Assembly: GCA_044222185.1 (NCBI GenBank)
Contig: JBGANV010000003.1
Span: forward strand, 576,001 to 640,000
Direction of reading: 5' to 3'
DNA length: 64,000 bases
From: Planctomycetota bacterium
GTDB lineage: Bacteria; Planctomycetota; GCA-002687715; CAIWVZ01
The notes under the pieces: model-generated
Told to the model about the DNA's origin: nothing
The model's database searches: none
What the model saw: the letters and a program-made list of their open reading frames with translations, nothing else
Translations under genes and position numbers: made by a program
Part shown: positions 33,708 to 55,442 of the stretch, piece after piece
Layout: each line of letters starts with the position of its first letter
How positions within the stretch are numbered: position 1 is the first letter of the stretch

Positions 33708-36700
33708 TCAGAGGCTCGTGTTCACGAACGCCCAGGTGTTGCGGAACCCAACCGGGCTCGACGGATCCAGGTATGACGCCTGGAGAGTGAAGTGGAGTCC
33801 CAGCGGCGGATTCGGATTCGTGAGCCCGGTCAGCACGAACTTGCCGCCAGGCGCCGTGTTCCCCGGCTGGTTCGGCGACGTGACGATGCCGGGCTGCGCC
33901 GGGCCGTAGACGCCGATGCCGTCGAGTACCGGGAAGAGCCCCGGGCTCCCGACCGACAGGACGAGATTCGCCGCCGCGGTCGGCCAGTTGCCGATGGGCG
34001 CCGGCATGCCGGTGTCACCCGACAGGACGAACGCCGCGTTCGGGGCGCAACCCTCCATGTTGAACGAGTACACCACGCCCGGGGGAACGGGGTCCGCCAG
34101 CGGCACGTGGCCGATCGTCCCGTGGTTCGCGCCCGTACCCACGATCACTTCGGAGAAGTTCGACGCCACCGTCGGGAAGTTCTGGACCGAGATCCAGATG
34201 CCGCCGATCGACTGGGTCTGCTGTACCGAGGCTGGCAGGCTCGCCGTCAGAGTGGTTGCATTCACGAACGTGGTCGTCAGCTGGACTCCGTTGGCGAACA
34301 CCTTCGACGTCGCGAGATAGCCGCTGCCGCTCACCGTGAGGGTCGTCGGCGGCGAGGCCAACGTCTTCACGGCGATGGCGACGGGCGTGATCGACGTGAT
34401 GGCCGGCCCGATGATGCCGAGGGGCAACGAAACGGAATTGCCGCCAGCCGGACCCGGGTTGCGCACGAGGATCTGCGCCGTCCCCGCCGTCGCGATGAGC
34501 GAGGCCGGGATCGACGCCGACAACTGCGTCGAGCTGATGAACGTTGTGGTCTGCGGATTGCCATCCCACCGGATCTGGCTCTGCGAGTTGTAGTTGGTCC
34601 CGGTGACGGTGAGGGTGAACGCTGCCGAGCCGGCCGCGACCGACGACGGGCTGATCGACGACAGGGTCGCCGGCGGGTTGTTGATCGTGAACGTGAGCGG
34701 CGCGGACGTGCCGCCGCCCGGAGCCGGATTGAAGATCCGGATGCCTGGCAGCCCGCCGGCCGTGATGTTGCCCGCGGGGACCGTCGCCTGGAGCTGGGTC
34801 GAGCTCACGAACGTCGTCGCGAGGTTCGTCCCGTTCCACGTCACGATGCTCTGCGCGTTGCAGTTCGTGCCGGTCACCGTCAACGTGAACGCCGCGCTGC
34901 CCGCCAGGATCGACGAGGGGCTGAGCCCCGTCAGGGTCGGCACCGGGTTGTTGATGGTGAACGTCAGGTTGGCCGTCGTACCACCGCCTGGTGCCGGGTT
35001 GTTCACCCGCACCGTGGCCGACCCGGCCGTCGCGATGTTCCCAGCCGGAACCGTCGCGGTGAGCTGCGTCGCGCTGACGAACGTCGTCGTCAGGTTGGCG
35101 CCGTTCCACTGCACCCGGCTCTGCGTGTTGAAGTTCGACCCGTTTGCGGTGATCACGAACGCCCCACCTCCGGCGGTCGCCGAAGCCGGGCTGATGCTCG
35201 AGATCGAGGGCGCCGGATTCGTCACGGTGAACGTGAGTCCGGAAGTCGTCCCGCCGCCAGGAGCCGGAGTCGACACGGTCACCGTGTGGGTGCCAGCCGC
35301 CGCCACGAGTGCCGCGGGAATCGACGCCGTCAGCGAGGTCGCGTTCACGAACGTCGTCGCCTGCGCGACGCCGTCCCATTGCACGACGCTCGAAGCCACG
35401 AAGTTCGTCCCCGTGCACGTGAGCGTGAACGCCCCGGATCCCGCGACCGCCGTCGTCGGCGAGATCGTCGACAACGTCGGCACGGGATTGGGCGTCGGTT
35501 CGATGTCGACGGTGAACGAGCCCGAGAGCCCGACGCCGCCGCTGCGCGACACGATGATCGCGTGGGCGCCGGTTCCGAGCGTCCGCGTGGTCGTGGCAGC
35601 ACCGACGACAGACGCGACGTTTGCATTCGCTCGGACGCGCCACGCCGAGTCCGTGCCCGGCTCGAAGAGGAACCAGTCGAGGCCGGCAACGCCCGTGAGC
35701 GTGATGTCGTAGCTGCCTGCCGTCGCGACGTTGAACTGGAAGATCCGGATCGCTTGCCCACTACCCCAGGCCGCGCCGTATGGAGTGCCGATCGTCGGGG
35801 TCACCAACGTCGCCTGATTCAGACTCGCGTTGGCGGTACCGAAGAACCGACTGACCATGCCCAAGGTCGGAGAAACGGCGCCGAGCGTCCCGTTGGCGAC
35901 GACGAAGTCACAAATCGACGAGCCGAATTGGGACTCTGCCGTGGCGATGACCACGTCCCAGTCGCTCGTCGACGTGACGCCGACTGCATTCCACTGGCCC
36001 GAGGTCGGCGCGATCGTGAACGGCTGACACGGGTTCGTGAGCGTCGTCGCGACGGTCGACGGCGAGAGGTTCACGATCGCGGCCGTCGCGCAAAGGTGCA
36101 CGGTATACGGGAGCGTCGTGGCCGCGGGTCCGCCGTCATGGGTGACGACGACGGCGTGCCATCCGGCCCCCAGGCTCACCGTGTTGACGTTCCCGACGAT
36201 CCCTGCCGTGATCGCGCCGGTGCGGTCGTTCCACGGTGCTTGCGATCCCATGAGGACGAAGCCGAGGCTCGTGTCGCCGCTCAACGAGACGTCGTAGGAC
36301 CCGGCGCTCGGAACGTTGAACTGGACGACGTCGACGATCGAGCCGGATGCGAGCGCCGTGTCGAACGGGGTTCCGACCGTCCCCGTCGCCGCGGTGGCGT
36401 GTTCTGCCGTTGCGTTGGACGAGCCCAAGAAGCGGACGATCGCGCCCGACGATGGCGAGATCGCTCCGGCGTGGCCGTCGGCGATGCAGAAGTCGGTCGT
36501 CGACCCGCCGAACCGGGAGTAGCCGGCCCCGATCGCGATGTCCCAGTCCGAAGCGCCGGTGACGGCGACGACGTTGAAGATTCCCGCCGTGGGCGTCAGG
36601 CTGAACCCCTGGCACGCGTTCGTGATGGTCTGCGCGACATTCGCCGCCAAGGCCACCGGCGCCACCGATTGGCACACGCTGAACGTGAATCCGCCCGACG

Positions 36701-38375
36701 TGGCCGCAGGTCCGCCGTTGCGCGTCACGACGAGGCAGTGCCAGCCGGTGCCCAACGTCAGTCCGAGCGTCGGCGCGCCGCCGACTGTGCCGCTCGCGAT
36801 CTGTCCCGCGCTCGACCGCGCTCGCCAGCCATTGTTGGCGCCCGGTGCGTGGAACTGCCATGTCAGGCTCGTATCGCCGTCGAGCGCGATGTCGTAGGCA
36901 CCAGCCGACGTGATGTTGAACTGGTAGACCTCGATGATTTCCGTGCTCCCGAAGAAGCCGACGTTCTGCACGCCAGTCGACGAGGTCGTCGCGACCTGGA
37001 ACTCGGCCGTGGCGTTGGGGCCACCGGAGAACAGGTACACCTCGCCACCCGTCGGCGCGACCGACCCGAGGTTGCCGTTCGCGAGCACGTAGTCGCAGGC
37101 GGTCCCGCCGAACGTCGAGAAGACCGATTCCACGTGCAGGTCCCAGTCCGAAGCGGAGGACGCCGCGAGGACCACCCAATCGCTCGACGCGGTCGTCGTG
37201 TTGACGTATCGCGGCGAGCACGTGATCGTCGCCGGCGAGCCGTTCGAGAGCGACGTGCTTCCGCAGACGCCTGTGTTGGTGATGGCGTTCTGCAACCCGC
37301 CGTTCAGGATGCTCGTGCCGGAATTGCTTCCGCTCGACGAGCCGCAGCCGGCGTTCGTGTGAATCCCGATGGCGAGGCCGTTCGAGTCGTCGATGACCGG
37401 CGCGCCGGAGTCACCGCCCTCGGTGTCGACCTGGTACGTCAGCATGGTGCCGCTGGCGCCGGTGTATGGCCCCACGGCAGTCTGTTGAACGAAGTTGCGG
37501 ATGCCCGAATCCGCCCCGCAGCCGGTCACGCGGAGCGTGGGAATGATGAACGGCGGCAGGTAGAGGGGAAGGCTCCCGGCGAGGCTGAAGCTCGCGCCAC
37601 CCATGTGCTGGAGCGCCGTTTGACCCGTCGAGTTCGGGTGCAAGCGCATGGCAGCGTAATCGTCGCCGATGGCGTTCTGAACGGCGATGATCGACTGCTG
37701 ATCCACCGGGAACTGGTCGGCGACCGGCGGGTTGATGATCGATCCACCCGTAGTCGAGAGAGGCACGTTGAACTGCGCGGTGATCAGCGCGGACGTGTTG
37801 GCCGGAATGCCGCAGTGGCCGGCACTCAGCAGCATGTTCTGGCCGTTGATGAGCCAGCCGGTGCAGACGAATCCGTTGCCGAGGAGCCGGCAAACCCTCG
37901 AATCGGACGAGAGCACGCGATCGTCCGTCGTGCCGCACTGGGAGTCGACGCCGACCGGCGGCGCGATCGTCGTTTGATAGATGAACGCGGAGCCGACGGT
38001 CACCTGCCCGGAGGACTTGGGCGAGAGCCTCAGCTCGATGAGGACCGCGCTGCCGTTGAACCAGGCCGAGTGGTTGCGCCAGTGCTTCATCACCACCGGG
38101 TTCAGCACCTGCACCTGGTTGTCCGTGAGGCTCGTGACGACGACGGCGTCATCCTCGCGAGCGAGGTCCGCCACGTCGAACACGAGCTGCATGCAGCCCG
38201 CCGTGGGAATCGTCAGTACCTGGCTCCAGACGATCTGGGGCTGAGTCGTGGGGTTAGACGCGATGCCGCTGGCCAGCTCGGCCGACACCTGCGTCATGAT
38301 CTGTGGATTGACTTGAGCTGCGCTCACGACGGAAAGCGTGAGTGCCACGGCCACGACGGCGAGGCTCCTGGACAT
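33708..38375 (-). CDS. large secreted trypsin-like (S1) serine protease with 3 internal repeats, 5 IPT/TIG domains and a C-terminal domain (paralog A)
   Basis: Signal peptide MSRSLAVVAVAL; triad LSAGHC / DDYAAM / GGDSGAP; five NP.PTL..ISP...FTLTVTG.NF IPT/TIG repeats. Start set at ATG 38375 after AAGGAG. Confidence 0.85.
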   Translation of the reverse strand: MSRSLAVVAVALTLSVVSAAQVNPQIMTQVSAELASGIASNPTTQPQIVWSQVLTIPTAGCMQLVFDVADLAREDDAVVVTSLTDNQVQVLNPVVMKHWRNHSAWFNGSAVLIELRLSPKSSGQVTVGSAFIYQTTIAPPVGVDSQCGTTDDRVLSSDSRVCRLLGNGFVCTGWLINGQNMLLSAGHCGIPANTSALITAQFNVPLSTTGGSIINPPVADQFPVDQQSIIAVQNAIGDDYAAMRLHPNSTGQTALQHMGGASFSLAGSLPLYLPPFIIPTLRVTGCGADSGIRNFVQQTAVGPYTGASGTMLTYQVDTEGGDSGAPVIDDSNGLAIGIHTNAGCGSSSGSNSGTSILNGGLQNAITNTGVCGSTSLSNGSPATITCSPRYVNTTTASSDWVVLAASSASDWDLHVESVFSTFGGTACDYVLANGNLGSVAPTGGEVYLFSGGPNATAEFQVATTSSTGVQNVGFFGSTEIIEVYQFNITSAGAYDIALDGDTSLTWQFHAPGANNGWRARSSAGQIASGTVGGAPTLGLTLGTGWHCLVVTRNGGPAATSGGFTFSVCQSVAPVALAANVAQTITNACQGFSLTPTAGIFNVVAVTGASDWDIAIGAGYSRFGGSTTDFCIADGHAGAISPSSGAIVRFLGSSNATAEHATAATGTVGTPFDTALASGSIVDVVQFNVPSAGSYDVSLSGDTSLGFVLMGSQAPWNDRTGAITAGIVGNVNTVSLGAGWHAVVVTHDGGPAATTLPYTVHLCATAAIVNLSPSTVATTLTNPCQPFTIAPTSGQWNAVGVTSTSDWDVVIATAESQFGSSICDFVVANGTLGAVSPTLGMVSRFFGTANASLNQATLVTPTIGTPYGAAWGSGQAIRIFQFNVATAGSYDITLTGVAGLDWFLFEPGTDSAWRVRANANVASVVGAATTTRTLGTGAHAIIVSRSGGVGLSGSFTVDIEPTPNPVPTLSTISPTTAVAGSGAFTLTCTGTNFVASSVVQWDGVAQATTFVNATSLTASIPAALVAAAGTHTVTVSTPAPGGGTTSGLTFTVTNPAPSISSISPASATAGGGAFVITANGSNFNTQSRVQWNGANLTTTFVSATQLTATVPAGNIATAGSATVRVNNPAPGGGTTANLTFTINNPVPTLTGLSPSSILAGSAAFTLTVTGTNCNAQSIVTWNGTNLATTFVSSTQLQATVPAGNITAGGLPGIRIFNPAPGGGTSAPLTFTINNPPATLSSISPSSVAAGSAAFTLTVTGTNYNSQSQIRWDGNPQTTTFISSTQLSASIPASLIATAGTAQILVRNPGPAGGNSVSLPLGIIGPAITSITPVAIAVKTLASPPTTLTVSGSGYLATSKVFANGVQLTTTFVNATTLTASLPASVQQTQSIGGIWISVQNFPTVASNFSEVIVGTGANHGTIGHVPLADPVPPGVVYSFNMEGCAPNAAFVLSGDTGMPAPIGNWPTAAANLVLSVGSPGLFPVLDGIGVYGPAQPGIVTSPNQPGNTAPGGKFVLTGLTNPNPPLGLHFTLQASYLDPSSPVGFRNTWAFVNTSL

Positions 38376-38822
38376 GCGATCACTCCTTGAAACGGTTGCG
38401 GTGACGGCGGGCGGCTCGAGGGGGAGCCCGCACGGGTATCGAAGACTCTCGATGCGAGTGCCGAGGATCCGGCAGCGCACGGCGACGGTTGGCACGCCGA
38501 AGTGCCCCGCATCGAAGGCCAGGAGCGTACCGCTGATGCGGCCGGGCGTGAATGGGGGCGAAGAAACCTGACGGGATCGTGGCGCCGAGGGCCACATCCC
38601 GGTCTGATCACCGTCAGCACGTGCTTGCTCAGGCACGAACGAGCGCGGCGCGGACGGCGTGCGAGGGATCGCCTCGGTCGATCGCGGAGACCGTCAATTT
38701 CAGAAAAGACGACGGGGCCGAGCCGCGGTCCGGCCCGACCCCGTTTCACGCGAACGCGCGCGCTCTCGCACGCACCCCACCGCGCCGCACCGTCAGCACG
38801 GCGCGGCGCATCACACGGAGCC

Positions 38823-41800
38823 TCAGATGCTCGTGTTCACGAAAGCCCAGGTGTTGCGGAACCCGACCGGGCTCGCGGGATCGAGGTAGGACGCCTGGAG
38901 CGTGAAATGGAGTCCGAGAGGCGGGTTTGGATTCGTGATCCCTGGCAGGACGAACCGCCCGCCCGGCGCCGTGTTGCCCGGCTGCGCGGGGCCGATCACG
39001 ATCCCCGGCTGCGCCGGGCCATAGACTCCGATGCCGTCCAGAACCGGGAACAACCCAGGGCTGCCGACCGAGAGCACCATGTCGGCCGCTGGAGTGGGCC
39101 ATGCACCGATGGGCGCCGGCATTCCCGTGTCGCCGGAGAGCACGAACGGCGCGTTCGGAACGCAGCCCTCGATGTTCAGCGAATAGACGACGCCGGGCGC
39201 GACCGGGTCCGGAAGCGGCACGTGACCGATCGTCCCGTGGTTCGCTCCGCTCCCCACGATCACCTCGCCGAAGTTCGACGCGACGGTCGTGGCGTTGCGG
39301 ACCGAGATCCAGATCCCGCCGAGCGACCGCGTCTGCTGAACCGTCGCCGGAAGCGAGGCCGTCAGCAGCGTGCTGCTCAGGAAGGTCGTCGTGAGTGCGA
39401 CGCCATTCCCGAACACCGTCGAGGTCGGCAGGAAGTTGCTCCCGTTCACCGTCAAGGTGGACGCCGGGGACGCGAGCGTCTTGATCGCGATCACCGCGGG
39501 CGTGACCGACGTGATCGCAGGCCCGACCATGCTGAAGGTCAGGGTCGCGGAATTCCCGCCGCCGGGGGTGGGATTGCGCACCTGGACGCTGGCCGTTCCG
39601 ACCGCCGAGATCAGCGCCGCGCTGATGGACGCGGTGAGCTGCGTCGCCGACACGAACGTCGTCGCCTGCGGCGCACCGTTCCAGCGCACTTCGCTCTGGG
39701 CGTTGAAGCTCGATCCCGTCACGGTGAGCGTGAACGCCCCCGTGCCGGCAAGCGCCGACGCCGGATTCATGGAGCCCAGCACCGGGACGGGGTTGTTGAC
39801 CGTGAAGGTCAACGCAGCCGTGGTGCCGCCACCCGGTGTGGGATTGACGACTCGCACGGATGCCGATCCGCCGGCGACGATGTTCGCCGCGGGGACGGTC
39901 GCCTGGAGCTGCGTCGCACTCACGAACGCGGTCCCAAGGCTCGCCCCGTTCCACGTCACCGCGCTCTGCGCGTTGAAGTTCGTGCCGTTCACCGTGAGCG
40001 TGAACGATGCGCCTCCCGCGATCACGGATGAGGGGCTCAGCGAGGTCGCCGTGGGCACCGGGTTGTTGATCGTGAACGTCAAGTTCCCCGTGGTGCCACC
40101 ACCCGGTGCAGGGTTGTTCACCGAGATCGTCGCGGTTCCCGCGGCGACGATGTTGACCGCCGGGACGCTCGCCGTGAGCTGGCCCGCGTTCACCAACGTC
40201 GTCGTCAGGTTCACCCCGTTCCAGCGCACGCGGCTCTGGGAATTGAAGTTCGACCCGTTGACCGTCAGCACGAAGGCCGCGCCACCCGCAGTCGCGGTCG
40301 CAGGCGCCATGGACGCGATCGTCGGCGCCGGGTTCGTCACCGTGAACGTCACGCCGCCCGACGTTCCGCCACCGGGCGCCGGTGTGAACACGGTCACGGT
40401 GTGGGTGCCCGCTGCGGCGACGAGCGCCGCCGGGATCGACGCCGTCAGCGACGTCGAGCTGCCGAACGTCGTCGACTGCGCGACGCCGTCCCATTGCACG
40501 ACGCTCGCGGCGAACCCGTTCGACACGAAGTTCGTGCCCGTGCACGTCAGGGTGACGGCTCCCCCACCCGCCACGACCGTCGTCGGGCTGATGGATGCGA
40601 GCGTGGGGACCGGGCTCGGGGTCTGGCTCACGAGCACCGAGTACGCGCCGCTGATGCCGACGCCGCCGCTACGGGCGACGACGATCGCGTGCCATCCGAG
40701 CCCCAGGTTGCGCGTCAGCACGCCGCCACCCGTCGCCGACGCGAGGTTGGAGTTGGCGCGCGTTCGCCACGCGGACGAAGCGCCCGGCTCGAAGAGATCC
40801 CAATCGAGGCCCGCGAGGCCGGTCAGCGTGAAGTCGTAATCACCCGCCGTCGTGACGTTGAACTCGAAGATGCGGAGGACCTGGCTCGCCCCCCACGAAG
40901 TCGCGAACGTGGAACCGATCGACAAGGTCGACGTCGTGGCCTGGTTGACCGTCGCGCCGGTCACGCCGTTGAATCTCACGATCGTGCCGGCCGTGGGCGA
41001 GATCACACCCAGGTGACCATTCGCGAGGACGTAGTCGGCGGTGGTACCACCGAACTGGGACTCGGCCGTACCGACGAGGACGTCCCAGTCGGATCCCGCG
41101 GATGAGATCCCGACCGCGTTCCATGTCGATGCCTGGGGCGCGAGCGTGAACGGCACGCAGGCATTCGTCACAGCCGTCCCGGTGCTCGATGGAGTCAGCG
41201 CGATGACCGACGCCGTGGGGCACAGGTTCACGGTGAAGTTCAGGAGGGTCGTGGCGGGACCACCAGAGTGGATGATCACCATGAGCCAGATCCCGGCCGA
41301 CAGGGTCACCGTCTGCGTCGAGCCGAAGCCCACCGTCCCGGTGGCGGCGTAGTTCGCCAGCGGAATCCAATCGGCCGTCGTGCCGGGAGCCATCAACATC
41401 CACTGCAGCTCCGTCGGGCCGGTGACGTTCACGTCGTACTGGCCGCTCGACGGGACGTTGTACTCGATGGCTCGGACGACCTGGTTCGCACCAAACGTCG
41501 TATCGAACGTGGCGCCCACGGTCCCGGTCGACGTCGCGGCGACGTGCTCACCGGACGCGGTGCCGGACGCGGAATAGCGCATGAACGTTCCCTGGGTCGG
41601 CGTGATGGCGCCGTTGTGGCCGTTCGAGGCGCAGAAGTCGACGGTCCCGCCGGAGAACGCGAGCCCCGACCCCAAGAAGACGTCCCAGTCGCTATTGCCG
41701 CTGACGGCCACGACATTCCACAGGCCGGCAGTCGGCGTCGTCGAGAACGTCGCACACGCTGCAGGGATCGACTGGGTCACACCGGGTGTGAGCGCGATCG

Positions 41801-43514
41801 TCGGCACGGCGTTGCAGATGCTGGCCGAGAACGTCGCACCTGAGCCGGGTCCGCCGTTGCGGAACACGACGAGGCAGTGCCATCCCGCACTCAGAAAAAC
41901 GTTGGTGAACGGCGCCGCGTTGGCGACGCCGGACGCGACGAATGACGTGCCGCCGCGGGCGAACCAGGCGTTGCTCGCAGCCGGTCCGTAGAGGTGCCAG
42001 GTGAGCGTCGAGGGTCCGTTGACGGCGACGTCGTAGTTCCCCGCCGAGGGGACGTTGAACTCTAGGAGCGAGATGACGTTCGAGCCCGGGATGAATCCGA
42101 GCGTCTCGACGTTCACCGCCGCAGTGCTTGCGACGGCGTACTGAACGGTCGCGTTGGGCCCGCCAGAGAAGAGCTGAATCTCGGCGCTGACGGGGTTGAC
42201 GGCAGCTGCGTGCCCGTTCGCCAGCACGAAGTCACACGCACTCCCGCCGAGGAAGGATCCGATCGTGTTGACCTGGATGTCCCAATCGAACGGTGATGAG
42301 ACGGCGATGCCCGTCCAGCCGAAGGTCTGCTGGGTCGTGCTCACGTAATGCGGAGAGCACGAGATCGTCGCGGGGAAACCCGGGCTCAGGACCGTCGAAC
42401 CGCAGTTGCCCGTGTTCGCGATCGCGCCCTGGAGGCCGGCATTCAGGATGCTCGTCCCCGAGTTGCTGCCGAAGACGGCACCGCAACCGCCGTTGGTGTG
42501 GATGCCGATGGCGAGGCCCGTGGCCTCGTCGATCACCGGCGAGCCGGAGTTCCCGCCCTCCGTATCGACCTGGTAATTGATGACGTCACCGCCGGCGCCC
42601 GAATAGGGGCCGGTCGCCGTTTGCTGGACGAAATTCGCCGTGCCCGTGTCGGCGCCGCAACCCGTGACGCGGATCGTCGGGACGGAGAACGGAGGGAAGT
42701 AGAACGGAAGGCTCGACGCGAGGCTGAAGCTCGCTCCACCCTGATGCGAGAGTGCCGTCTGCCCCGTCACGTTCGGGTGCAGGCGCATCACGCTGAAGTC
42801 GTTGCCGATGGCAGTCTGCACCGCGACGATCGTCCCCTGGTCGACCGGGAACTGGTTGTGCGCGGGAGGGTTGATGATCTGACCGCCGGCCGTCGACAAC
42901 GGCACGTTGAACTCGGCGGTGATCAATGCCGACGTGGACGCGGGAATGCCGCAGTGACCGGCCGAAAGGATCATGTTCTGGCCGTTGATGAGCCACCCCG
43001 TGCAAACGAATCCGTTGCCGAGGAGGCGGCAGACACGCGCGTCGCCGCTGAAGGTGCGATCGTCGGTCGCTCCGCACTGCGTATCGATCCCCGCGGGCGT
43101 CGTCATGGAGGCACCGAAGAGGAACGCCGAGCCGACCATGACCTCGCCGTGCGAGCCGGGCATGAGCCGCAGTTCGAGCGCCAGGGCTCCGCCGTTGAAC
43201 CACGCCGTGTGGTTGCGCCACTGCTTCAGGCTCATCTGCGTGAAGACCTGCGAGTCGTTGTCCGCGAGGCTCGTCACCGTGAGCGAGTCGCCCTCGCGCT
43301 CGAGGTCCGCGACCGTGAACGCGAGTTGCAGCGATCCCGCCGTCGGAATCTGGACGACCTGCGTCCACACGACTTGCGGGCTCGCGGTGGCGTTCGTGAG
43401 CCGGCCGCTTCCCACTTCGACCGGAACCTCGGTCATCAGTTGGAGGTTGCCTTGCGCGCCAGCCAGGCACGCGAGCCACAACGAGCATGCGATCGTCAGC
43501 GTCGAACTCTTCAT
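38823..43514 (-). CDS. large secreted trypsin-like (S1) serine protease, paralog B (same architecture)
   Basis: Signal peptide MKSSTLTIACSLWLACLAGA; LSAGHC / NDFSVM / GGNSGSP; same repeats as paralog A and a near-identical C-terminus (...FRNTWAFVNTSI). Confidence 0.85.
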   Translation of the reverse strand: MKSSTLTIACSLWLACLAGAQGNLQLMTEVPVEVGSGRLTNATASPQVVWTQVVQIPTAGSLQLAFTVADLEREGDSLTVTSLADNDSQVFTQMSLKQWRNHTAWFNGGALALELRLMPGSHGEVMVGSAFLFGASMTTPAGIDTQCGATDDRTFSGDARVCRLLGNGFVCTGWLINGQNMILSAGHCGIPASTSALITAEFNVPLSTAGGQIINPPAHNQFPVDQGTIVAVQTAIGNDFSVMRLHPNVTGQTALSHQGGASFSLASSLPFYFPPFSVPTIRVTGCGADTGTANFVQQTATGPYSGAGGDVINYQVDTEGGNSGSPVIDEATGLAIGIHTNGGCGAVFGSNSGTSILNAGLQGAIANTGNCGSTVLSPGFPATISCSPHYVSTTQQTFGWTGIAVSSPFDWDIQVNTIGSFLGGSACDFVLANGHAAAVNPVSAEIQLFSGGPNATVQYAVASTAAVNVETLGFIPGSNVISLLEFNVPSAGNYDVAVNGPSTLTWHLYGPAASNAWFARGGTSFVASGVANAAPFTNVFLSAGWHCLVVFRNGGPGSGATFSASICNAVPTIALTPGVTQSIPAACATFSTTPTAGLWNVVAVSGNSDWDVFLGSGLAFSGGTVDFCASNGHNGAITPTQGTFMRYSASGTASGEHVAATSTGTVGATFDTTFGANQVVRAIEYNVPSSGQYDVNVTGPTELQWMLMAPGTTADWIPLANYAATGTVGFGSTQTVTLSAGIWLMVIIHSGGPATTLLNFTVNLCPTASVIALTPSSTGTAVTNACVPFTLAPQASTWNAVGISSAGSDWDVLVGTAESQFGGTTADYVLANGHLGVISPTAGTIVRFNGVTGATVNQATTSTLSIGSTFATSWGASQVLRIFEFNVTTAGDYDFTLTGLAGLDWDLFEPGASSAWRTRANSNLASATGGGVLTRNLGLGWHAIVVARSGGVGISGAYSVLVSQTPSPVPTLASISPTTVVAGGGAVTLTCTGTNFVSNGFAASVVQWDGVAQSTTFGSSTSLTASIPAALVAAAGTHTVTVFTPAPGGGTSGGVTFTVTNPAPTIASMAPATATAGGAAFVLTVNGSNFNSQSRVRWNGVNLTTTLVNAGQLTASVPAVNIVAAGTATISVNNPAPGGGTTGNLTFTINNPVPTATSLSPSSVIAGGASFTLTVNGTNFNAQSAVTWNGASLGTAFVSATQLQATVPAANIVAGGSASVRVVNPTPGGGTTAALTFTVNNPVPVLGSMNPASALAGTGAFTLTVTGSSFNAQSEVRWNGAPQATTFVSATQLTASISAALISAVGTASVQVRNPTPGGGNSATLTFSMVGPAITSVTPAVIAIKTLASPASTLTVNGSNFLPTSTVFGNGVALTTTFLSSTLLTASLPATVQQTRSLGGIWISVRNATTVASNFGEVIVGSGANHGTIGHVPLPDPVAPGVVYSLNIEGCVPNAPFVLSGDTGMPAPIGAWPTPAADMVLSVGSPGLFPVLDGIGVYGPAQPGIVIGPAQPGNTAPGGRFVLPGITNPNPPLGLHFTLQASYLDPASPVGFRNTWAFVNTSI

Positions 43515-44185
43515 CGAGAATCTCCGTGAGATTGAAAGGCGCGCCGCCGGGAGCGAGATCCAACACGTCGCTCGCCGAAGGCCGCCGCGAACCGACCGGT
43601 CACGCAGACCGATGAGCCCGAAGCGGCATCGGGCGGCGGAAAGTGACAGGCGCGTCGGAGAAAAATCACCGAGCACGCAAACGTCGATCTTCAATAGGTT
43701 TACGGCACGTCATGGATCATGGACGGACGTGACGAACGGCCCTTCCCATGTCCCGCGCCGTCACAGCAAGCGTGGACCCGATCGGGGGATCGACACGCGA
43801 CTGATAGCCACACGGCGTTTGCTTCACGGCGACGGCACCGGCTCGATGACCGGTGGCGCTGGACGTGCAGCGCATGTGTGCCGGCCCGCCGCGACGCGGC
43901 GCGACCCCTCACCGCTTCGAAGCGATCGTCGTGGTCGCGACGCGCCTCGCCGACACGAACGCGGCGAACTGTGCGGGTTCGTCACGTCCACGGACACCGC
44001 CCCACACGGCGCCGCCGACCGGACGCCGCGAAACACACGAGCCGGGGAAGCGACGTCCGCCCCGCGTGAGATCGCGTCGCAGCAGGCGCCAGATGCACGC
44101 ATCGCGCCGCTCGAAGTAGCATCCCCCTGCCGATCGACCGGGTTGTCGCGAGCGCGCAACGATCGGATTGCGGGAAAGGACTCTC

Positions 44186-45691
44186 ATGGCGAGCGTCGCG
44201 AAACAGGTGTTCATCTCGTACGCGAGGGAGGACAAGGAGAGAGTCCGGCGCCTCTACCGACGACTGAAGAAGGACGGCATCGACTCGTGGTGGGACGAGG
44301 AAGACCTGGACCCCGGCGTCGCGTGGCCGGATCGGATCTCGACCGCGATCAAGAACTGCACGATCTTCCTCGCCTGCCTCTCGACGACGGCCGTTCGCAA
44401 GCGAGGTCATGTCCAGGTCGAGATGCAGCAGGCGCTGGAGGTGCTCAAGACGCTCCCGGCCGGCGACGTCTACGTGATCCCACTCTGCCTCGAGACGTGT
44501 GCCGTTCCAGAGCCGATCGCCGATCGGCAGAAGCTCGACCTCTTCGCGCCGAAGGGGTACGAGAGGCTCCTCACGGCCCTACGGGAACGCCTCTCCCACC
44601 CACCCACCTGCGGTACCGAACCTCGCCCGAACCCGCCGACCGCGCCGCGACCGTTTCTGATCGGGATCGATGTCGGGACGACCAAGATCGCAGGGGCAAT
44701 CGTCAGTGTCCCAGACGGGCAGGCGCCGACGGTCGTGTTGGAGCAGCGGATCAACCACGCCGAGATTGGCAGAGAGACCGGCATCCTCGACAAGGTCGAA
44801 TCCGTCGTCCGGCGCCTGATCGCCGATCATGGGCTGAAGCCCGGCGATATCGCTGCCGTTGGAATCGGGCTTCCCGGGCAAGTGGACTCGGAAGACGGAG
44901 TCCTGAAGTTCGCCCCGGGGCTCGCCCTGCATGAGATCGCGGTTGCTGGTGAATTGACGAGACGTCTGGGAATCGCGACCTATGCGGACAACGACGTGAA
45001 GTGCGCGACCTTGGCCGAACTACGCCACGGGTGGGGCCGGACAAACAAGGACCTCGTGTGCGTCTTCGTCGGCACGGGGATCGGGGGTGGCATCGTGGTC
45101 GACGGCCGACTATTGCGCGGTTCAGCGTGGTGCGCCGGCGAGGTCGGCCACATGAAGATCGCAATCGGCGCCACGGCGGAGGCCTGCACGTGCGGGGGTC
45201 TCGGTTGCTTCGAAGCGTATGCGTCGTCACGAGCCCTCATCCGAATGGCGCGCGCGGCGATCGACGACGCAAAGAAGAACGGAGTTACGACGAAACTCGC
45301 CGCCGTCGATCAGGCCACGGTCCGGCCCGAGGTGATCGTCGCAGCCGCCAAGGCCGGAGACGACGTCGCATGCGCCGTGATCACGGAGTTCGGCAGGGTC
45401 CTGGCGGTCGGCCTGGCGAACATCGCGAACGTCCTGAACCCGGACGTCATCGTGCTCGGGGGCGGTCTCGTGAAGGGTCTGGCAACCGTCGACGGTTTCA
45501 ACAAAGGGCGCGATCAGTCGTTCCGGGCCCATGCATTTCGGGGTTGTGCGGATTCGAAGATTCGAGACCCCGAATTGGGCGACCACGCGCCGATCATCGG
45601 GGCCTGCCTGCTCGCGCTCGAACGAAGCCGACGCCGATCGAGAGTGTCAAAACCTGCCGCCGCTCCCGCGTCTCAAGCGAACGCCACCTGA
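44186..45691 (+). CDS. TIR-domain / ROK-family sugar kinase fusion protein
   Basis: N-terminal TIR_2 (VFISYARED...WWDEEDL.PG..W..I..AI...GHVQVE...VIP), Pro-rich linker, and ROK domain (IGIDVGTTK, NDV, GTGIGGG, GEVGH, CTCGGLGCFEAYAS). Confidence 0.88.
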   Translation: MASVAKQVFISYAREDKERVRRLYRRLKKDGIDSWWDEEDLDPGVAWPDRISTAIKNCTIFLACLSTTAVRKRGHVQVEMQQALEVLKTLPAGDVYVIPLCLETCAVPEPIADRQKLDLFAPKGYERLLTALRERLSHPPTCGTEPRPNPPTAPRPFLIGIDVGTTKIAGAIVSVPDGQAPTVVLEQRINHAEIGRETGILDKVESVVRRLIADHGLKPGDIAAVGIGLPGQVDSEDGVLKFAPGLALHEIAVAGELTRRLGIATYADNDVKCATLAELRHGWGRTNKDLVCVFVGTGIGGGIVVDGRLLRGSAWCAGEVGHMKIAIGATAEACTCGGLGCFEAYASSRALIRMARAAIDDAKKNGVTTKLAAVDQATVRPEVIVAAAKAGDDVACAVITEFGRVLAVGLANIANVLNPDVIVLGGGLVKGLATVDGFNKGRDQSFRAHAFRGCADSKIRDPELGDHAPIIGACLLALERSRRRSRVSKPAAAPASQANAT

Positions 45692-45815: not shown

Positions 45816-47393
45816 ATGCACTACGACGTCATCATCATCGGGACCGGCGCCGGCGGTGGAACTCTGCTCCACCGACTTGCGCCGTCTGGGAAGTCGATCC
45901 TCGTCCTCGAGCGCGGCGGGTTCCTTCCGCGCGAGAAGGACAACTGGAGCCCCCACGCGGTCCTGACCGAATCCAAGTACAAGGCGCAGGAGACCTGGTT
46001 CGACGCGGAGGGCAAGGCGTTCCACCCCGGGATCCACTACTACGTGGGCGGGCAGACGAAGTTCTACGGCGCCGCGCTGCTCCGCATGCGCGAGCGCGAC
46101 TTCGAGGAAGTCCGACACGCCGATGGGATCTCCCCCGCATGGCCCGTGGGCTACGCGGAGTTGGAGCCGTACTACACTGAGGCCGAGAGGCTCTACCGCG
46201 TTCACGGTGAGCGCGGATCCGACCCGACGGAACCCTGGGCCAGCGCGCCGTACTCGCACCCCGCCGTCAGTCACGAGCCGCGCATCCAGCGGCTCCATGA
46301 CGATCTGGTCCGCATCGGACGCAAGCCGTTCCCGCTGCCCATGGGTGTGCTCCTCGACGAACGCCGACCCGAGCGCAGCCCCTGCATCCGCTGTGAGACG
46401 TGCGACGGATTCCCCTGCCTCGTGAACGCCAAGTCGGACGCGCACGTCATCTGCGTGAACCCGGCGCTGAAGCACCAGAACGTCACCCTGCTCACGAACG
46501 CACTCGTGACGCGGCTCGAGGTCGATGGAACGGGGCGCGACGTGCGACGCGTGCACGTGGACCGCGACGGCGCGAAGGAAACCTACTCGGCCGATCTCGT
46601 CGTCGTCGCCTGCGGCGCCGTGAACTCCGCGGCCCTCCTCCTCCGGTCGGCCTGCGACCTCCACCCGCGCGGACTCGCCAACCGGTCGGGTGTCGTCGGT
46701 CGCCACTACATGTGCCACAACAACTCGGCGCTGATCGCGCTGTCGAAGGACCCCAATCCGACACGCTTCCAGAAGACGCTCGGACTGAACGACTTCTATT
46801 TCGGCGACGACCACTACCCGTTCCCCATGGGCCACATCGCCATGTTGGGCAAGCAGGACATGGAATCGCTTCGCGGCGGTGCACCGGCGTTCGCGCCCGG
46901 AATCGTGCTGGACGCCATCGGGAAACACACGCTCGACTTCTGGCTGACGACCGAAGACCTGCCGGATCCGCAGAACCGGGTCGTCCTGCGCGACGACGGC
47001 GCGATCGAACTCCGCTACCGAGAGAACAACGTGGAGCCGCATCGCCGGTTGACGCAGAAGCTGAAGGAGATGCTCGAGGCGATCGGCTGTGACCACCGCC
47101 ACCTGATCCCCCACGCCCTCTACCTGGGCAAGAAGATCCCCATCGCCGGGGTCGCGCACCAATGCGGAACGATCCGGTTCGGAGAGGACGCCGAACGCTC
47201 GGCGCTCGACCGGAATGGCCAGGCCCACGACGTGGAGAATCTCTTCGTGGCGGATGCGAGCGTCTTCCCGTCGAGCTCCGCCGTGAATCCCGCGCTCACG
47301 ATCATGGCGCATGCACTCCGCCTCGGAGATCACATCCTCCACCGACTCGGCGTCTCGGCGAGCTCGGCGAGCTCGGCGGAGGTCGCACGATGA
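45816..47393 (+). CDS. GMC family flavin oxidoreductase
   Basis: YDVIIIGTGAGG FAD motif, LERG, VGGQTKFYGA, CIRCETCDGFPC, AHQCGT and NPALTIMA. Confidence 0.9.
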   Translation: MHYDVIIIGTGAGGGTLLHRLAPSGKSILVLERGGFLPREKDNWSPHAVLTESKYKAQETWFDAEGKAFHPGIHYYVGGQTKFYGAALLRMRERDFEEVRHADGISPAWPVGYAELEPYYTEAERLYRVHGERGSDPTEPWASAPYSHPAVSHEPRIQRLHDDLVRIGRKPFPLPMGVLLDERRPERSPCIRCETCDGFPCLVNAKSDAHVICVNPALKHQNVTLLTNALVTRLEVDGTGRDVRRVHVDRDGAKETYSADLVVVACGAVNSAALLLRSACDLHPRGLANRSGVVGRHYMCHNNSALIALSKDPNPTRFQKTLGLNDFYFGDDHYPFPMGHIAMLGKQDMESLRGGAPAFAPGIVLDAIGKHTLDFWLTTEDLPDPQNRVVLRDDGAIELRYRENNVEPHRRLTQKLKEMLEAIGCDHRHLIPHALYLGKKIPIAGVAHQCGTIRFGEDAERSALDRNGQAHDVENLFVADASVFPSSSAVNPALTIMAHALRLGDHILHRLGVSASSASSAEVAR

Positions 47394-48457
47394 GCAGAAC
47401 CATGCCTTTCCTGCGCCAGTCGTGTCGTGCCGTCGCCATCTTGGTGGCGATCCTTGCGGTCGCCCGACTCCCAGCCCACGCCCAAGCGGACAGTCGTCCG
47501 GCGAGCCGGGCCGTCGCCGTCGCAGAGGTCTCCATGACCGTCGCCGACCTCGACCGCGCGGTGGAGTTCTACACGCGCGTGCTCGGCTTCACGAAGCGAG
47601 CCGAGGCCGAGACGGAAGGGGAACGCCCGGAGGCGATTCTCGGTGTCTTCCCCGCTCACACACGAGCCGCCAGGCTCACGCTCGGGGATGAGTCCATCGA
47701 ACTCGTGCAGTTCCTGACGCCCCAGGGCCGCCCGTATCCCCGCGATGCGCGAAGTCACGACCGCAGTTTCCAGCACGTGGCCATCATCGTGCGCGACATG
47801 GCCAAGGCGTACGCGGTCCTCCGCCAGAACGAGGTGGCGCACATCTCACCGTCGCCGCAGCGCCTCCCGGATTGGAATCCGAACGCGGGCGGAATCGAGG
47901 CCTTCTACTTCCGTGACCCGGACGGGCATCCCCTCGAGATCCTGCACTTCCCCGCCGGCAAGGGCGCACCAAAGTGGCACCTGCCGTCGGAGCGGGTCTT
48001 CCTGGGCATCGACCATTCGGCGATCACCGTGCGCAGCACCAGCGACGCCCTCGCCTTCTACCGCGACGTTCTTGGCATGACCGTCGTGGGGACGAGCGAG
48101 AACTCCGGGATCGAACAGGAGCGCCTCAACGCCGTTCGCGGTGCGCGCCTTCGGATCACGACCCTGCGAGCCGAGCGCGGTCCGGGCGTCGAGCTCCTCG
48201 AATACGTCGCGCCGGACGGTGGCAGTCCGATGCCCGCCGACGTGCGAACGAGCGACGTCCTCCATCGGCACACGACGATCGAGGTCGACGATGCGCGCGC
48301 CGCGGCGCGGGCGATGCGAGAGAAGGCGCTACCGTTCGTTTCATCCCGGGTCGTCGAGGAGGATCCTGCGGCGGCGTCGGGAACGTGTTTCATCGTTCGA
48401 GACCCCGACGGTCACGCCGTGAAGATCACCGAACGCCAGAAGGGGCGGAAGCCATGA
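47390..48457 (+). CDS. secreted two-domain VOC/glyoxalase family protein
   Basis: Signal peptide ending AHA-Q; [36 protein letters not shown] and RDPDGH. ATGA overlap with the GMC stop. Confidence 0.85.
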
Positions 48458-51195
48458 CGAACCACGAGGCACGCCGATTGGAGGACGCACGCACGCAGGC
48501 AGCCGCGTGGCGGAGGTGGGGTCCCTACGTCTCCGATCGCCAATGGGGAACGGTCCGTGAGGACTACAGCGCCGACGGCAACGCCTGGAACTACTTCCCC
48601 TACGACCACGCGCGCAGCCGCGCCTATCGATGGGGCGAAGACGCAATCGGTGGAATCTGCGACGACAAGCAGAACCTCTGCTTCGGTCTCGCGCTGTGGA
48701 ACGGGCGCGACCCGCACTTGAAGGAGCGCTTGTTCGGGCTGGGCGGACCCGAAGGCAATCACGGCGAAGACGTCAAGGAGCTCTACTACTACCTGGACTC
48801 GACGCCGACGCACTCCTACATGCGGATGCTCTACAAGTACCCGCACGCCGAGTTCCCCTACGAGGCGCTCCGGCGCGAGAACAAGAACCGCGGTCGCACC
48901 GCGCCGGAGTACGAGATCCTCGACACGGGCGTGTTCGACGACGACCGGTACTTCGACGTCTTCATCGAGTACGCGAAGGCGGACGTGGAGGACATCCTCG
49001 CGCGGGTCACGATCCACAATCGGGGACGCGACGCCGCGGCGGTTCACGTCCTCCCCCAGCTGTGGTTCCGCAACACGTGGTCCTGGGTGAGCGGCCGCCC
49101 GCGGCCGACGCTCGCCTGCCCACGAAGCGGTGTCGTCACCGCCGACTGCGCGGCCCTCGGCAAGCGCTGGTTGTTCGTCGACCGGCCTGCCGACTTGCTC
49201 TTCTGCGACAACGACACGAACGCACAGCGTCTGTTCGATGCCTACCCATCGCCGGGATACTTCAAGGATGGCATCGACGACGCAATCGTGAATGGACGCG
49301 CCGATGCCGTGAACCCGGACAAGACGGGGACGAAGGCCGCGGTCCACTTCTTCGCAGAGATCGAAGGCGGCGGCTCCGTCTCATTCCGGCTGCGCCTCGC
49401 GCCCACCGACCTCCCGGCGCCGTTCGCCGACTTCGACCGCACGTTCGCGGCGAGACTCGGCGAGGCAGACGAGTTCTACGCCGACCTCCAGCGAGACCAG
49501 CCCGATGCGGACGCGCGCCTGGTGCAGCGGCAGGCCCTCGCCGGCCTGCTCTGGACCAAGCAGTTCTTCTACTACGACGTCCCCGAGTGGTTGAACGGTG
49601 ATCCGGCGCAACCGCCTCCACCCAATGCGCGACGCCGGGGCCGCAACCACGAGTGGACGCACCTGAACAACGCCGACGTCATCTCCATGCCCGACAAGTG
49701 GGAGTACCCGTGGTACGCCGCGTGGGATCTTGCGTTTCACTGCGTCGCGCTCACCCTCGTCGACACGGAGTTCGCCAAGGATCAGCTGATCCTGCTCACG
49801 CGCGAGTGGTACATGCACCCCAACGGGCAGATGCCTGCCTACGAATGGGCGTTCGGCGACGTCAACCCTCCGGTGCACGCCTGGGCCGCGTGGCGCGTCT
49901 ACAAGATCGACAAGAAGCGGACGGGTCGAGCCGACACGGACTTCCTCGAGCGCGTGTTCCACAAGCTCCTGCTGAACTTCACCTGGTGGGTGAATCGCAA
50001 GGACGCCGAGGGCCGCAACGTCTTCCAAGGCGGCTTCCTCGGCCTCGACAACATCGGCGTCTTCGACCGCAGTGCGCCGCTTCCAACCGGCGGGTTCATC
50101 GAACAGGCCGACGGCACGAGCTGGATGGCGATGTATGCGCTGAACCTCATGCGGATCTCGCTCGAGCTCGCGCAGACGAAGCCCATCTACCAGGACATGG
50201 CGACGAAGTTCCTGGAGCACTTCCTCTACATCGCCGGCGCCATGGCGAACATCGGAGGCGACGACGCGAGCCTGTGGGACGAGGCCGACGGGTTCATCTA
50301 CGACGTGCTGCATCTGCCCGACGACGGGCACGTGACGTTCCGCATCCGGTCCATGGTCGGGCTCGTGCCGCTGTTCGCCGTCGAAGTCCTGGACCCCGAC
50401 GTGCTCGATCGCGTCCCCGAGTTCAAGCAGCGGCTCGAGTGGTTCCTCGCCTATCGGCCGGACCTCGCGAACCTCGTGTCGCGGTGGCAGGTGGCCGGAA
50501 AGGGTGAGCGACGTCTGCTCTCGCTGTTGCGCGGTCACCGCATGAAGTGCCTCCTGAAGCGCATGCTGGACGAGACGGAGTTCTTGTCGGAGTACGGGGT
50601 GCGGGCCCTCTCGCGGGCGCACAAGGACCAGCCCTACGTCCTCCAGGCCGACGGCAAGACGTTCACCGTCGGCTACCAGCCCGGCGAGTCCGAGTCGGGC
50701 CTCTTCGGAGGCAACTCGAACTGGCGTGGCCCGGTCTGGTTCCCGATGAACTACCTGATCGTGGAATCGCTCCAGCGATTCCACCACTACTACGGCGACG
50801 AGTTCAGGGTCGAGTGCCCGACGGGCTCCGGAAAGTTCCTGACGCTGCTCGAGGTCGCCTCCGAGATCGCGCGGCGCCTTGCGTTCATCTTCCTGCGCGA
50901 TGCCCGCGGCCGCCGCGCCGTCTTCGGGAAGGACGAGCGGTTGCAGAACGACCCGCACTTCCGCGACTACCTGACGTTCCACGAGTACTTCCACGGGGAC
51001 GACGGGAGAGGACTCGGCGCATCGCATCAGACGGGCTGGACGGCGCTCGTCGCGAAGCTGCTGCAACCGCGGGACGCCGCCGCGCCGGCCAAGGCGACCG
51101 CCCGCGACCTCGGCGAAACCCGCGACTCGCGCGCACCGCGTGACGGCCAGGCCGTGGCGGCCGGTCCCGCGCGTCGCAGGAGTCGGGTCTCGTGA
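48454..51195 (+). CDS. GH63-like (MGH1-like) alpha-glucosidase
   Basis: [48 protein letters not shown] and [21 protein letters not shown]. Confidence 0.9.
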
Positions 51196-53198
51196 CACGG
51201 AACGGAAAGCAACTCGAGATCGGACCCGATCGACTGCGCGATCTGCCGCAGGCGACGCGTCAGGAATGGCTCGAGACGAACGGCCTGGGTAGCTACGCCT
51301 CCTCGACCGTGTGCGGGATGAACACGCGCCGCTACCACGGGCTCCTGGTTGCGGCGGCGCGCCCCCCCGTGGGCCGCTGCGTCCTGCTCGCGAAGGTCGA
51401 AGAGACGCTCTTCGTCGGCGATCGAACGGTGCCGTTGTCGGTGAACCGCTACGAGGGCACGACGCATCCCGACGGCCACCTCCGCCTCGTTCACTTCACG
51501 GACGACCCGTTCCCGACGACGCGATGGCGCGTCGACGACGTCACGATCGAGCGCACGATCTTCATGCCTCGGGGACGTCACGCGGCCGTGATCACCTACC
51601 GGAGGGTCGGCGGAGGTGACACCGGACCGATCCACCTCGAAGTCCGACCGCAGGTGGCGTTCCGCGACTACCACTCGCTCGGCCGCGAGGCACCGTCCCG
51701 TGAAGCGCGCTGCGCGCGCAGCGCCGAGGCGCGCGTCATTTCGGGCGACCCGGCACTTCCTCGGCTCCACCTCACGTTCAGCGACGCCACGGTCGATGAG
51801 CGCCGCTGGTGGTACCGCGGACTCAGGTACGACGCGGAGGCGGCGCGCGGATTCGACTTCATCGAGGACCTCCACAGTCCATGCGGGATCCGCTTCGCGC
51901 TTCGCCCCGGGACGGATGCCGTCCTGATCGCCGCAACGGAACCGATCCCGGCCGCGGCCGCAGCGGCGTTGCGAGCGGCCGAATTGCGCCGACGGCGCGC
52001 GCTCGTCCCGAAGTCCGCGACCGAGCCACGACCGATCCGTGCGCTTCGCCGTGCAGCCGACGCGTTCCTCGTCCACCGCGGCGAGCACCGTTCGATCCTC
52101 GCTGGATTCCCGTGGTTCTCGGACTGGGGTCGCGACGCCATGATCGCGCTGCCGGGCCTCCTCGTCGCGACGAACCGGCTGGCAGAAGCCCGCGCCGTGC
52201 TGCTCGCATTCGCCGACGCCGTGAGCGAAGGAATGCTCCCGAACCGCTTCCCCGACTCGGGTGAAGCGCCCGAGTACAACACCGTCGACGCCACGCTCTG
52301 GTTCTTCGAGGCGATCCGCGCCTGGCACGCCGCGTCACGAGACGACGTGACTCTCCGCGCGCGCCTCCTCCCGGTCCTCGATTCCATCGTCGACTGGCAC
52401 GTCCGCGGGACGCGCCACGGAATCCGCGTGGATGACGACGGGCTCCTGCGGGCCGGAGAGCCCGGCGTGCAACTGACGTGGATGGATGCGAAGGTCGGGA
52501 ACCGGGTCATCACTCCGCGAACGGGAAAGGCCGTAGAGGTCCAGGCGCTGTGGTTCAACGCCACATGCAGCCTGCGCGATCTCGCCCGCCGTCTGGGTTG
52601 CCGCGCCATGGCCGCCCGCGCCGCGACGCTGGCGGATCGCGCTCGACGGGCCTTCGGTCCCGCGTTCTGGAACCCTGGGACGGGCTGCCTGTTCGACGTC
52701 GTCGGCGACGGCGCACCGGACCCGGCGATCCGTCCCAATCAGCTCCTCGCGGTCAGCCTCAGGCATGCGCTCGTCCGCGGACCGCGCGCGAAGAGCATCG
52801 TCGCCGTCGTCGAGCGCGAGCTTCGAACACCGTATGGGCTGAGGACGCTGTCTCCGGCCGATGCACGCTACGTGGGACGCTACGAGGGCGGCCCCGAGCA
52901 ACGGGACTCGGCCTATCACCAAGGAACCGTCTGGCCGTGGCTCATGGGCCCTTTCGTCGACGCGTATCTCGCAGCCCACGGCCGCACGCGCACGACGGTC
53001 GCCCGAGCCATGCGCTGGCTCGAACCGCTCCTCGCGTTCGCAGCCGGCGAGGGCCTCTCGTTCCTGCCCGAGGTCTTCGACGGCGACGCGCCGCAACGCG
53101 CCGGCGGATGTTTCGCACAGGCTTGGAGCGTGGGCGAAGTCCTGCGCGTGGCGCTGTCGCTGAGGAGTCGCCGGCGGACGAATCCGTCACGACGGTGA
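51192..53198 (+). CDS. amylo-alpha-1,6-glucosidase / glycogen debranching enzyme (GH133-like)
   Basis: [51 protein letters not shown] and QAWSVGE. Confidence 0.92.
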
Positions 53199-53226
53199 CC
53201 TGACGACCGGGACGCGGCGTCGGGTT

Positions 53227-55341: not shown

Positions 55342-55442
55342 CCGGTGGCGTCGGCCGCGCCGCGTAACCGCGCCGCGGCGGAAGCATCGAAGGGCAACGA
55401 AGCGTCGCCGGATTCCCTCGGCGACGCCGCCTGGAGTCCCCG

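Follow-up and report, generated by a model that had tools for sequence, protein, structure and literature searches.

The region analysed here, referred to as the window, is a 64,000-nucleotide stretch of the Planctomycetota genome GCA_044222185.1 (contig JBGANV010000003.1, positions 576,001 to 640,000). It contains a gene that combines an N-terminal TIR domain with a C-terminal ROK domain, in the following called TIR-ROK (Table 1). Its open reading frame (ORF) gave an uninterrupted translation of 501 amino acids. GGAAAGGA precedes the ATG at position 44186, and the longest form of the ORF starts with a TTG at 44168. A sequence-only reading of the same DNA had proposed that both domains lie in one ORF and had named their motifs; this was confirmed by translation and Pfam, and both halves look functional. 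Comparison with relatives pointed to a rare and apparently undescribed family, in which one ROK module carries interchangeable N-terminal effector domains.

The TIR domain was matched by Pfam TIR_2 (PF13676) at residues 8-129 with 94.1 bits (cut-off 28, E 1.1e-26, profile positions 1-122 of 122). A model of the isolated domain showed a flavodoxin-like TIR fold, with a predicted local distance difference test (pLDDT) of 78.5 and a predicted template modelling score (pTM) of 0.75. Searched against the PDB, this model had 99 matches with E ≤ 0.001, and all of the listed ones are TIR domains. The best structural matches were the TIR domains of SPARTA TIR-APAZ proteins, with template modelling scores over the query (TMq) of 0.75-0.78, together with AbTir and BtTir; SPARTA TIR-APAZ was also hit by phmmer. 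TLR-type TIRs were also strong matches to the TIR profile, and in the profile alignment Glu79 fell in one column with the glutamate of their WCxxE motif. The Glu79 column held Glu in 24 of the 24 TIR_2-type members examined. Glu79 is at the position of the catalytic glutamate of TIR NADases and marks a putative active site. Residues 140-153 of the linker had a pLDDT below 50 in the AlphaFold model (overall 81.8) and formed its sole long low-confidence segment. Such a disordered linker is easier to reconcile with control by proximity than with a rigid connection of the two domains.

Pfam ROK (PF00480) covered residues 159-479 with 178.5 bits (cut-off 22.9, E 2.8e-52, profile positions 2-293 of 294). 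The nearest solved proteins to this half were the glucokinases 2qm1 (E 7e-43) and 3vgk (E 3e-35), with Foldseek TMt values of 0.82-0.87. The motifs DxGxT, ExGH and CxCGxxGCxE and the catalytic Asp were all present and aligned to 2qm1 and 3vgk; Asn269-Asp270 corresponded to the ND of the S. griseus glucokinase 3vgk. Conservation was counted over 40 full-length family members, leaving out the fragments and short forms P0184, P0006, L013, P0210, P0198, P0212 and P0213. The ATP-motif, catalytic, sugar-binding and zinc residues of ROK were kept in 36 to 40 of the 40; together with the TIR glutamate, this is the conservation expected if both halves work. Cys273 (codon 45002-45004), directly behind the catalytic ND (NDVKC), was invariant in all 40 members of the fused clade. 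This cysteine is specific to the clade, and a further difference from ROK glucokinases is the T that TIR-ROK has where DxGGT has its second G. The cut-off of the ROK glucokinase subfamily model TIGR00744 was not reached (172.3 against 260.35), and the NagC and Mlc equivalog models stayed far below theirs (134.2 against 650 and 125.8 against 530). No helix-turn-helix (HTH) family was found in the protein by Pfam. The C-terminal tail, residues 480-501, had no counterpart in the relatives, where the alignment stops earlier.

Prediction with two copies of residues 1-485 supported a homodimer, with an interaction prediction score from aligned errors (ipSAE) of 0.86 against 0.00 for the best control, although this pass may merely mirror likeness to solved structures, because ROK dimers have already been solved. 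The three runs shared at least 98% of contacts and the partner pLDDT was at least 81. In the calibration, the mark for a dimer was reached by 20 of 30 solved one-chain pairs and by 1 of 23 solved single chains. The predicted interface was confined to ROK residues 232-457, and the TIR domains were not placed. A homodimer through the ROK domain is supported as a prediction.

Table 1. Features of the TIR-ROK gene and its surroundings (positions in the window; conservation counts refer to full-length family members)
Feature	Position	Strand	Basis or remark
TIR-ROK gene	44186..45691	+	501 codons plus stop; stop-free translation, Pfam, public-run contigs
TIR domain (aa 8-129)	44207..44572	+	Pfam TIR_2; domain model
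Glu79 codon (GAG), position of TIR catalytic glutamate	44420..44422	+	motif GHVQVE
Pro-rich flexible linker (aa ~137-157)	44594..44656	+	sequence; model
ROK domain (aa 159-479), ASKHA-fold sugar kinase-like	44660..45622	+	Pfam ROK; Foldseek
Phosphate-1 ATP motif DVGTTK (aa 162-167)	44669..44686	+	D162 36/40, G164 40/40
Asn269-Asp270, sugar-binding Asn and catalytic base	44990..44995	+	N 40/40; D 38/40, remaining 2 Glu
Phosphate-2 motif GTGIGGG (aa 296-302)	45071..45091	+	G296, G298 40/40
Sugar-binding motif GEVGH (aa 318-322)	45137..45151	+	E319, H322 40/40
Zinc motif CTCGGLGCFE (aa 334-343)	45185..45214	+	C334, C336, C341, E343 each 40/40
C-terminal tail (aa 480-501), low confidence	45623..45688	+	pLDDT ~50; GC at third codon positions (GC3) 0.55 in last 21 codons
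Bridging contig, record 3 of run X2	44472-44702		0 differences
Bridging contig, record 11 of run X4	44582-44732		0 differences
Spacer, presumed promoter region	43514..44185	.	672 bp, non-coding, between divergent secreted-protease gene and TIR-ROK
GMC oxidoreductase	45816-47393	+	true start 45816, 124 bp downstream of TIR-ROK
GH63/MGH1-like hydrolase	47974-51195	+
Glycogen debranching enzyme	51192-53198	+
Subtilase with CBM48 glycogen-binding module	55368-56975	+

The integrity of the gene was judged against an assembly artefact or a decaying fusion of two neighbouring genes. Three points would suit such an origin: the source genome is assembled in 16 contigs, the runs that match it come from bioreactor and sludge metagenomes, and one homologue, L034 from Planctomycetia, is frameshifted close to its 3' end, although this may be an error of sequencing. 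Against it, the end of the TIR domain, the linker and the start of ROK were crossed with 0 differences from the window by contigs of two public runs, each belonging to another study. The same architecture was present in at least six independent sequences with 28-58% identity, and both domains are under conservation. An artefact or decaying fusion, to which we assign a negligible chance, is refuted as far as these data reach. A fusion without homologues, the other outcome that would have undone the sequence-only reading, was not found either, as homologous TIR-ROK fusions occur in several phyla. Among the runs compared, the entire gene was not spanned by any single public-run contig and some bins were uncovered. 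No RNA run was listed among those that match; a 151-nt contig at 44160-44310 came from a run that is RNA by guess only and could equally be DNA. GC3 was 0.87 for the TIR part, 0.79 for the ROK part and 0.80 for the whole gene, compared with 0.81-0.92 for 14 neighbouring genes; the GC content was 0.653 for the gene and 0.678 for the window. The excess of A/T-ending codons that had been noticed by eye in the ROK half is therefore only weakly true (0.79 against 0.81-0.92), and as a hint of foreign origin it is marginal in this genome.

Relatives of TIR-ROK were collected by several searches. A word-indexed search yielded five further proteins that join TIR and ROK, with 29-35% identity across 91-95% of the query. 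Three ROK relatives were closer, at 43-45% identity, but had another N-terminus, helical and about 150 residues long, for which there was one weak DUF4145 match. Genome and metagenome contigs contained further TIR-ROK genes (L009, L034, L091, L095, L099 and L089), a Trypsin_2-ROK gene (L093) and a caspase-like-ROK gene (L094). L010, labelled 'Opitutaceae', L090 and L092 repeated the L009 sequence, and the four entered the count as one. An exhaustive profile search covered 1,835,955,588 (1.84 billion) representatives and returned about 40 full-length relatives whose ROK domain scored above ordinary ROK kinases. Their N-termini were TIR (24), DUF4062 (3), caspase/CHAT (3), DUF4145-like (3), SEFIR and a trypsin-like protease, with 5 unassigned. 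Pfam annotation of the 45 top proteins gave ROK in all 45, TIR_2 in 19, DUF4062 in three, and SEFIR, CHAT, Peptidase_C14, Trypsin_2 and DUF4145 in one each. Scored alone against the clade profile, the ROK domains of the family reached 284-512 bits, and ordinary ROKs of about 320 residues reached at most 267. Eight of the 45 were tandem ROK-ROK proteins of about 650 residues (P0190, P0191, P0202, P0204, P0207, P0209, P0215 and P0224). They had ranked high by the sum of two domains, fell outside the clade by single-domain score, and were rejected as members and kept out of the tree. In the ESM Atlas, only generic ROK clusters were found, at 0.77 (lead level 0.9).

A maximum-likelihood tree of the ROK domains separated 47 clade rows from 29 generic ROKs with a Shimodaira-Hasegawa-like approximate likelihood ratio (SH-aLRT) of 100, a basal split that is partly built in because the rows were picked by their score to the clade profile. 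The generic rows included the source genome's own ordinary ROK. The order within the clade is free of this selection, and there the N-terminal types were interspersed: CHAT fell within a TIR group (support 99), trypsin grouped with SEFIR (98) and DUF4062 lay among TIR. At least five changes of the TIR label were forced on this tree. In the databases, family members are named 'glucokinase' or 'ROK family protein', automatic names that conceal effector-ROK fusions.

The distribution of TIR-ROK was patchy. Named carriers were Accumulibacter, Planctomycetia and Vicinamibacterales, and none of 40 relatives of the source genome had a full-length match. The only GMC oxidoreductase orthologue among 12 relatives was located at a contig start, so that the upstream side of the insertion site was unreadable. 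In Accumulibacter (L009), TIR-ROK formed a single-gene island with a GC content of 0.43 in DNA of 0.63, and the L034 gene had 0.56 compared with 0.65 around it. At L034 (L034:10001-11546 and 12875-14839), TIR-ROK was followed 1.3-3 kb downstream by genes for an N6_N4 DNA methylase and part of a PvuII endonuclease. At L099, genes for a HerA/TraG-like ATPase, DUF4407 and OmpA preceded TIR-ROK. No flanking ORF was common to the independent TIR-ROK loci compared. As an observation on the contigs themselves, L010 (labelled Opitutaceae UBA6669) and L009:6184-11900 shared mostly 94-100% protein identity over about 4.8 kb, flanks included, with a drop to 66-85% in a few end ORFs; a contig has probably been misassigned in one of these two bins.

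In the window, the TIR-ROK gene is preceded by a spacer, for which the sequence-only reading had given a non-coding gap of about 670 bp. Its length was 672 bp, provided that 43513 is the true ATG of the minus-strand gene upstream, where a signal-peptide-like N-terminus was seen by eye. GC content was flat across codon positions in all six frames of 43514-44185, giving no coding signal. The spacer had no match in Rfam, no sigma-70-like promoter or terminator-like site was found in it, and a repeat scan gave short imperfect direct or inverted matches only (14-36 nt, 64-93% identity). The upstream gene (38823-43513, minus strand) and the adjacent 33708-38636 (minus strand) are paralogous ORFs of about 1600 residues with IPT/TIG repeats. 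A trypsin-like peptidase domain in the former scored 27.3 bits, just under the Pfam cut-off of 27.6. Downstream, the same-strand run from 45816 to 56975 may be an alpha-glucan processing cluster. Further away, tandem Cpn60/GroEL paralogues and then DnaJ are encoded on the plus strand (24273-26063, 26406-28031 and 28032-29222). Elsewhere in the source genome, contig C4 carries a separate ordinary ROK, and contig C9 (L170:3640-7455) encodes a 1272-residue NLR-like conflict protein with an N-terminal TIR, an Apaf-1-like NB-ARC domain and WD40 repeats.

The favoured interpretation is that TIR-ROK is a one-protein sensor-effector of a conflict system, acting in anti-phage abortive infection, regulated cell death or dormancy, in which an ATP- and sugar-binding ROK dimer governs an assembly-dependent TIR NADase. 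We put the chances that this is correct at about even. Exchange of effector domains on one nucleotide-binding chassis, a stand-alone gene, occurrence in scattered phyla and foreign composition in other hosts together form the signature of a conflict system. The closeness of the TIR domain to the assembly-activated NADases SPARTA TIR-APAZ and AbTir was counted in its favour, as were the conflict-type neighbours at L034 and L099. In the proposed mechanism, the C-terminal ROK would form its usual homodimer with a working ATP site and a hexose-type sugar site and would serve as a sensing and switching module, as in NagC/Mlc. The N-terminal TIR on its flexible Pro-rich tether would be an NAD+-cleaving effector that is active only upon TIR-TIR assembly. 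Binding or turnover of a sugar-derived ligand, together with ATP, would alter the closure of the ROK dimer or its higher-order assembly, and this change would gather the TIR domains and start NAD+ breakdown. That the protein is an NADase, that a ligand controls its TIR domain, what triggers it and which biological role it has are inferences. That a sugar ligand might switch the TIR domain was already put forward in the sequence-only reading, and the idea is strengthened by the other killing domains found on the same ROK clade.

Several observations weigh against a conflict role. The neighbourhood of TIR-ROK in the window is not a defence island and would also fit a carbohydrate role, with giant secreted protease/TIG genes on the opposite strand and a Ser/Thr kinase upstream. 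The Accumulibacter locus L009 has ordinary flanks. No statistical link to defence genes could be drawn because only a handful of loci with flanks were compared. No relatives were found in viral contigs or in phage records (0 of 28), and 0 of 326 matching plasmid records covered at least 80% of the protein. In PADLOC-DB 2.0.0, all 11 matches were limited to the TIR part (residues 3-148). The built-in component of the basal split in the ROK tree belongs among these points. Finally, in the non-TIR relatives L093, L094 and L013, a gene for a Glk-type glucokinase follows directly (E 1e-82 to 1e-95). This conserved adjacency points to sugar metabolism and is unexplained by the favoured model. At L013 (L013:1161-1751, 1840-2901, 4244-4690), a BrnT-like/CopG-like toxin-antitoxin pair, below Pfam cut-offs, lies between the ROK gene and the glucokinase, and a second, partial glucokinase copy was present 1.3 kb further on.

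The Glk genes next to three relatives are also part of the case for a metabolic 'Rosetta-stone' enzyme, in which a TIR N-glycosidase acting on NAD+ or another nucleotide and sugar phosphorylation by ROK would belong to one pathway, or in which TIR-ROK would be the hexokinase of the downstream glycan-degradation genes, tied to NAD+ status. The fully kept catalytic set of ROK, the glucokinases as closest solved relatives, the same-strand carbohydrate genes downstream in the window and the names given to relatives in the source databases are consistent with it. The same ROK clade, however, bears trypsin-like, caspase, CHAT and DUF4145-like domains, which leaves no common two-step chemistry. In addition, contig C4 of the genome already supplies an ordinary ROK of its own, the score stays below the ROK glucokinase subfamily cut-off (172 against 260), no carbohydrate neighbour is conserved across TIR-ROK loci, and elsewhere TIR-ROK is a single-gene low-GC island. 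We consider such a metabolic enzyme unlikely. TIR signal synthases exist in Thoeris systems, and TIR-ROK might be one: TIR would make an ADP-ribose-derived molecule and ROK would phosphorylate this molecule or its sugar precursor, and the product would act as second messenger on an effector whose gene lies elsewhere. TIR signal synthesis in Thoeris is covered by 10.1101/2021.01.06.425286. Weak matches of ThsB-type models to the TIR domain fit this idea, which we rate as rather more doubtful. No partner gene is conserved beside TIR-ROK, and the scheme is impossible for the protease-ROK and DUF4145-ROK siblings; the related suggestion of the sequence-only reading, that the kinase modifies a TIR product, likewise does not fit relatives with a protease N-terminus. 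ROK substrates, judged by the names of solved proteins, are free hexoses and N-acetylhexosamines, not ribosyl nucleotides, and the hexose-binding residues are all kept.

The TIR domain could also be non-catalytic and have no killing function, serving for assembly or as an adaptor by which an otherwise normal sugar kinase is only regulated or localised. The strong matches of the TIR profile to TLR-type TIRs would agree with this. Glu at the catalytic position in 24 of 24 members and bacterial NADases among the nearest solved structures argue against it, and the domain is swapped with proteases and DUF4062, not with regulatory domains; we regard a non-catalytic TIR as improbable.

An extension of the favoured sensor-effector interpretation is more tentative, and we lean against it while taking it seriously. 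In this extension, the ROK fold would be an unrecognised class of ligand- and ATP-dependent switch for immunity and programmed death in prokaryotes, in a role like that of the STAND NTPases of NLR-like proteins. It would directly sense a metabolite of hexose type, such as a fragment of cell wall or glycan set free by infection or damage, and respond with NAD+ destruction (TIR, SEFIR, DUF4062) or to proteolysis (caspase, CHAT, trypsin). Nucleic acids, cyclic nucleotides and phage proteins are known to switch bacterial TIR effectors. If true, the ROK switch would represent a new type of input, the direct sensing of a metabolite or sugar coupled to cell killing by TIR or its protease counterparts. 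The effector-ROK proteins are short, with about 500 residues, are encoded by a single gene and offer clear point mutants for each half, making the hypothesis directly testable.

The view of the sequence-only reading that no system with a TIR-ROK architecture has been described was borne out, as PADLOC covers the TIR part only and literature searches found none. Full-text searches, with supplements and subscription journals outside their scope, found no paper in which ROK is discussed in connection with TIR domains, defence or conflict systems. The word ROK is absent from the accessible portions of PMC13069673 and 10.64898/2026.06.25.731849. As far as the available text of PMC7824862 goes, its jumbo-phage sugar kinases are of the PfkB family only, and the part of PMC13118837 that is accessible mentions only a ROK-family transcriptional regulator, 'TIR' there standing for terminal inverted repeats.

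Among known systems, SPARTA TIR-APAZ resembles TIR-ROK in that a TIR of one and the same subtype stands at the N-terminus and is fused to a C-terminal non-TIR module; among solved structures its TIR is the closest match (8qlp, 8u72, 8i87; 26-31% identity). According to the accessible part of PMC10474274, and also to PDB entry titles, the SPARTA NADase is switched on by oligomerisation. Unlike SPARTA, TIR-ROK has no APAZ domain by Pfam and no Argonaute neighbour within the window genes examined. As its C-terminal module is an ASKHA-fold sugar kinase, the trigger cannot be a guide-target nucleic acid. With the ROK glucokinases of E. faecalis (2qm1, 32% identity) and S. griseus (GlkA, 3vgk, about 30%), TIR-ROK shares all ATP, catalytic, sugar and zinc motifs in alignment and the predicted dimer through the C-terminal lobe of ROK. 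It differs from them by falling below the TIGR00744 cut-off and in belonging to a separate clade, whose full-length members have additional N-terminal domains.

Sequence and fold matches of TIR-ROK also included Mlc, NagC-like regulators and Lmo0178. In NagC and Mlc, a ROK sugar-sensing module controls an N-terminal output, and the TIR domain stands at the position of their winged HTH, as the sequence-only reading had stated. The NagC/Mlc-type ROK regulators are described as having lost the ATP phosphate-1 motif. TIR-ROK, in contrast, keeps this motif, lacks the HTH and scores far below the equivalog cut-offs. Thoeris ThsB, TIR-SAVED, TIR-STING, the TIR effectors of Pycsar and CBASS and retron-TIR have a TIR_2/ThsB_TIR-type domain with the catalytic Glu in common with TIR-ROK, and Thoeris and other bacterial TIR defence proteins share the logic of a TIR coupled to a ligand or sensor. 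ThsB models matched TIR-ROK at E 1e-4 only, and no ThsA, cyclase, SAVED, STING or reverse transcriptase was found in or beside the gene. The genes around it, over a distance of about 10 kb, code for a protease, a kinase, an oxidoreductase and glycoside hydrolases, which is not the gene content of a Thoeris system. The NLR-like and STAND proteins differ in their chassis, which in TIR-ROK is an ASKHA-fold ROK domain and not a P-loop NTPase, and TIR-ROK has no repeat-type sensor at its length of only about 500 residues. What the two groups share is the same N-terminal effector repertoire of TIR, caspase and trypsin, swapped on a conserved nucleotide-binding chassis.

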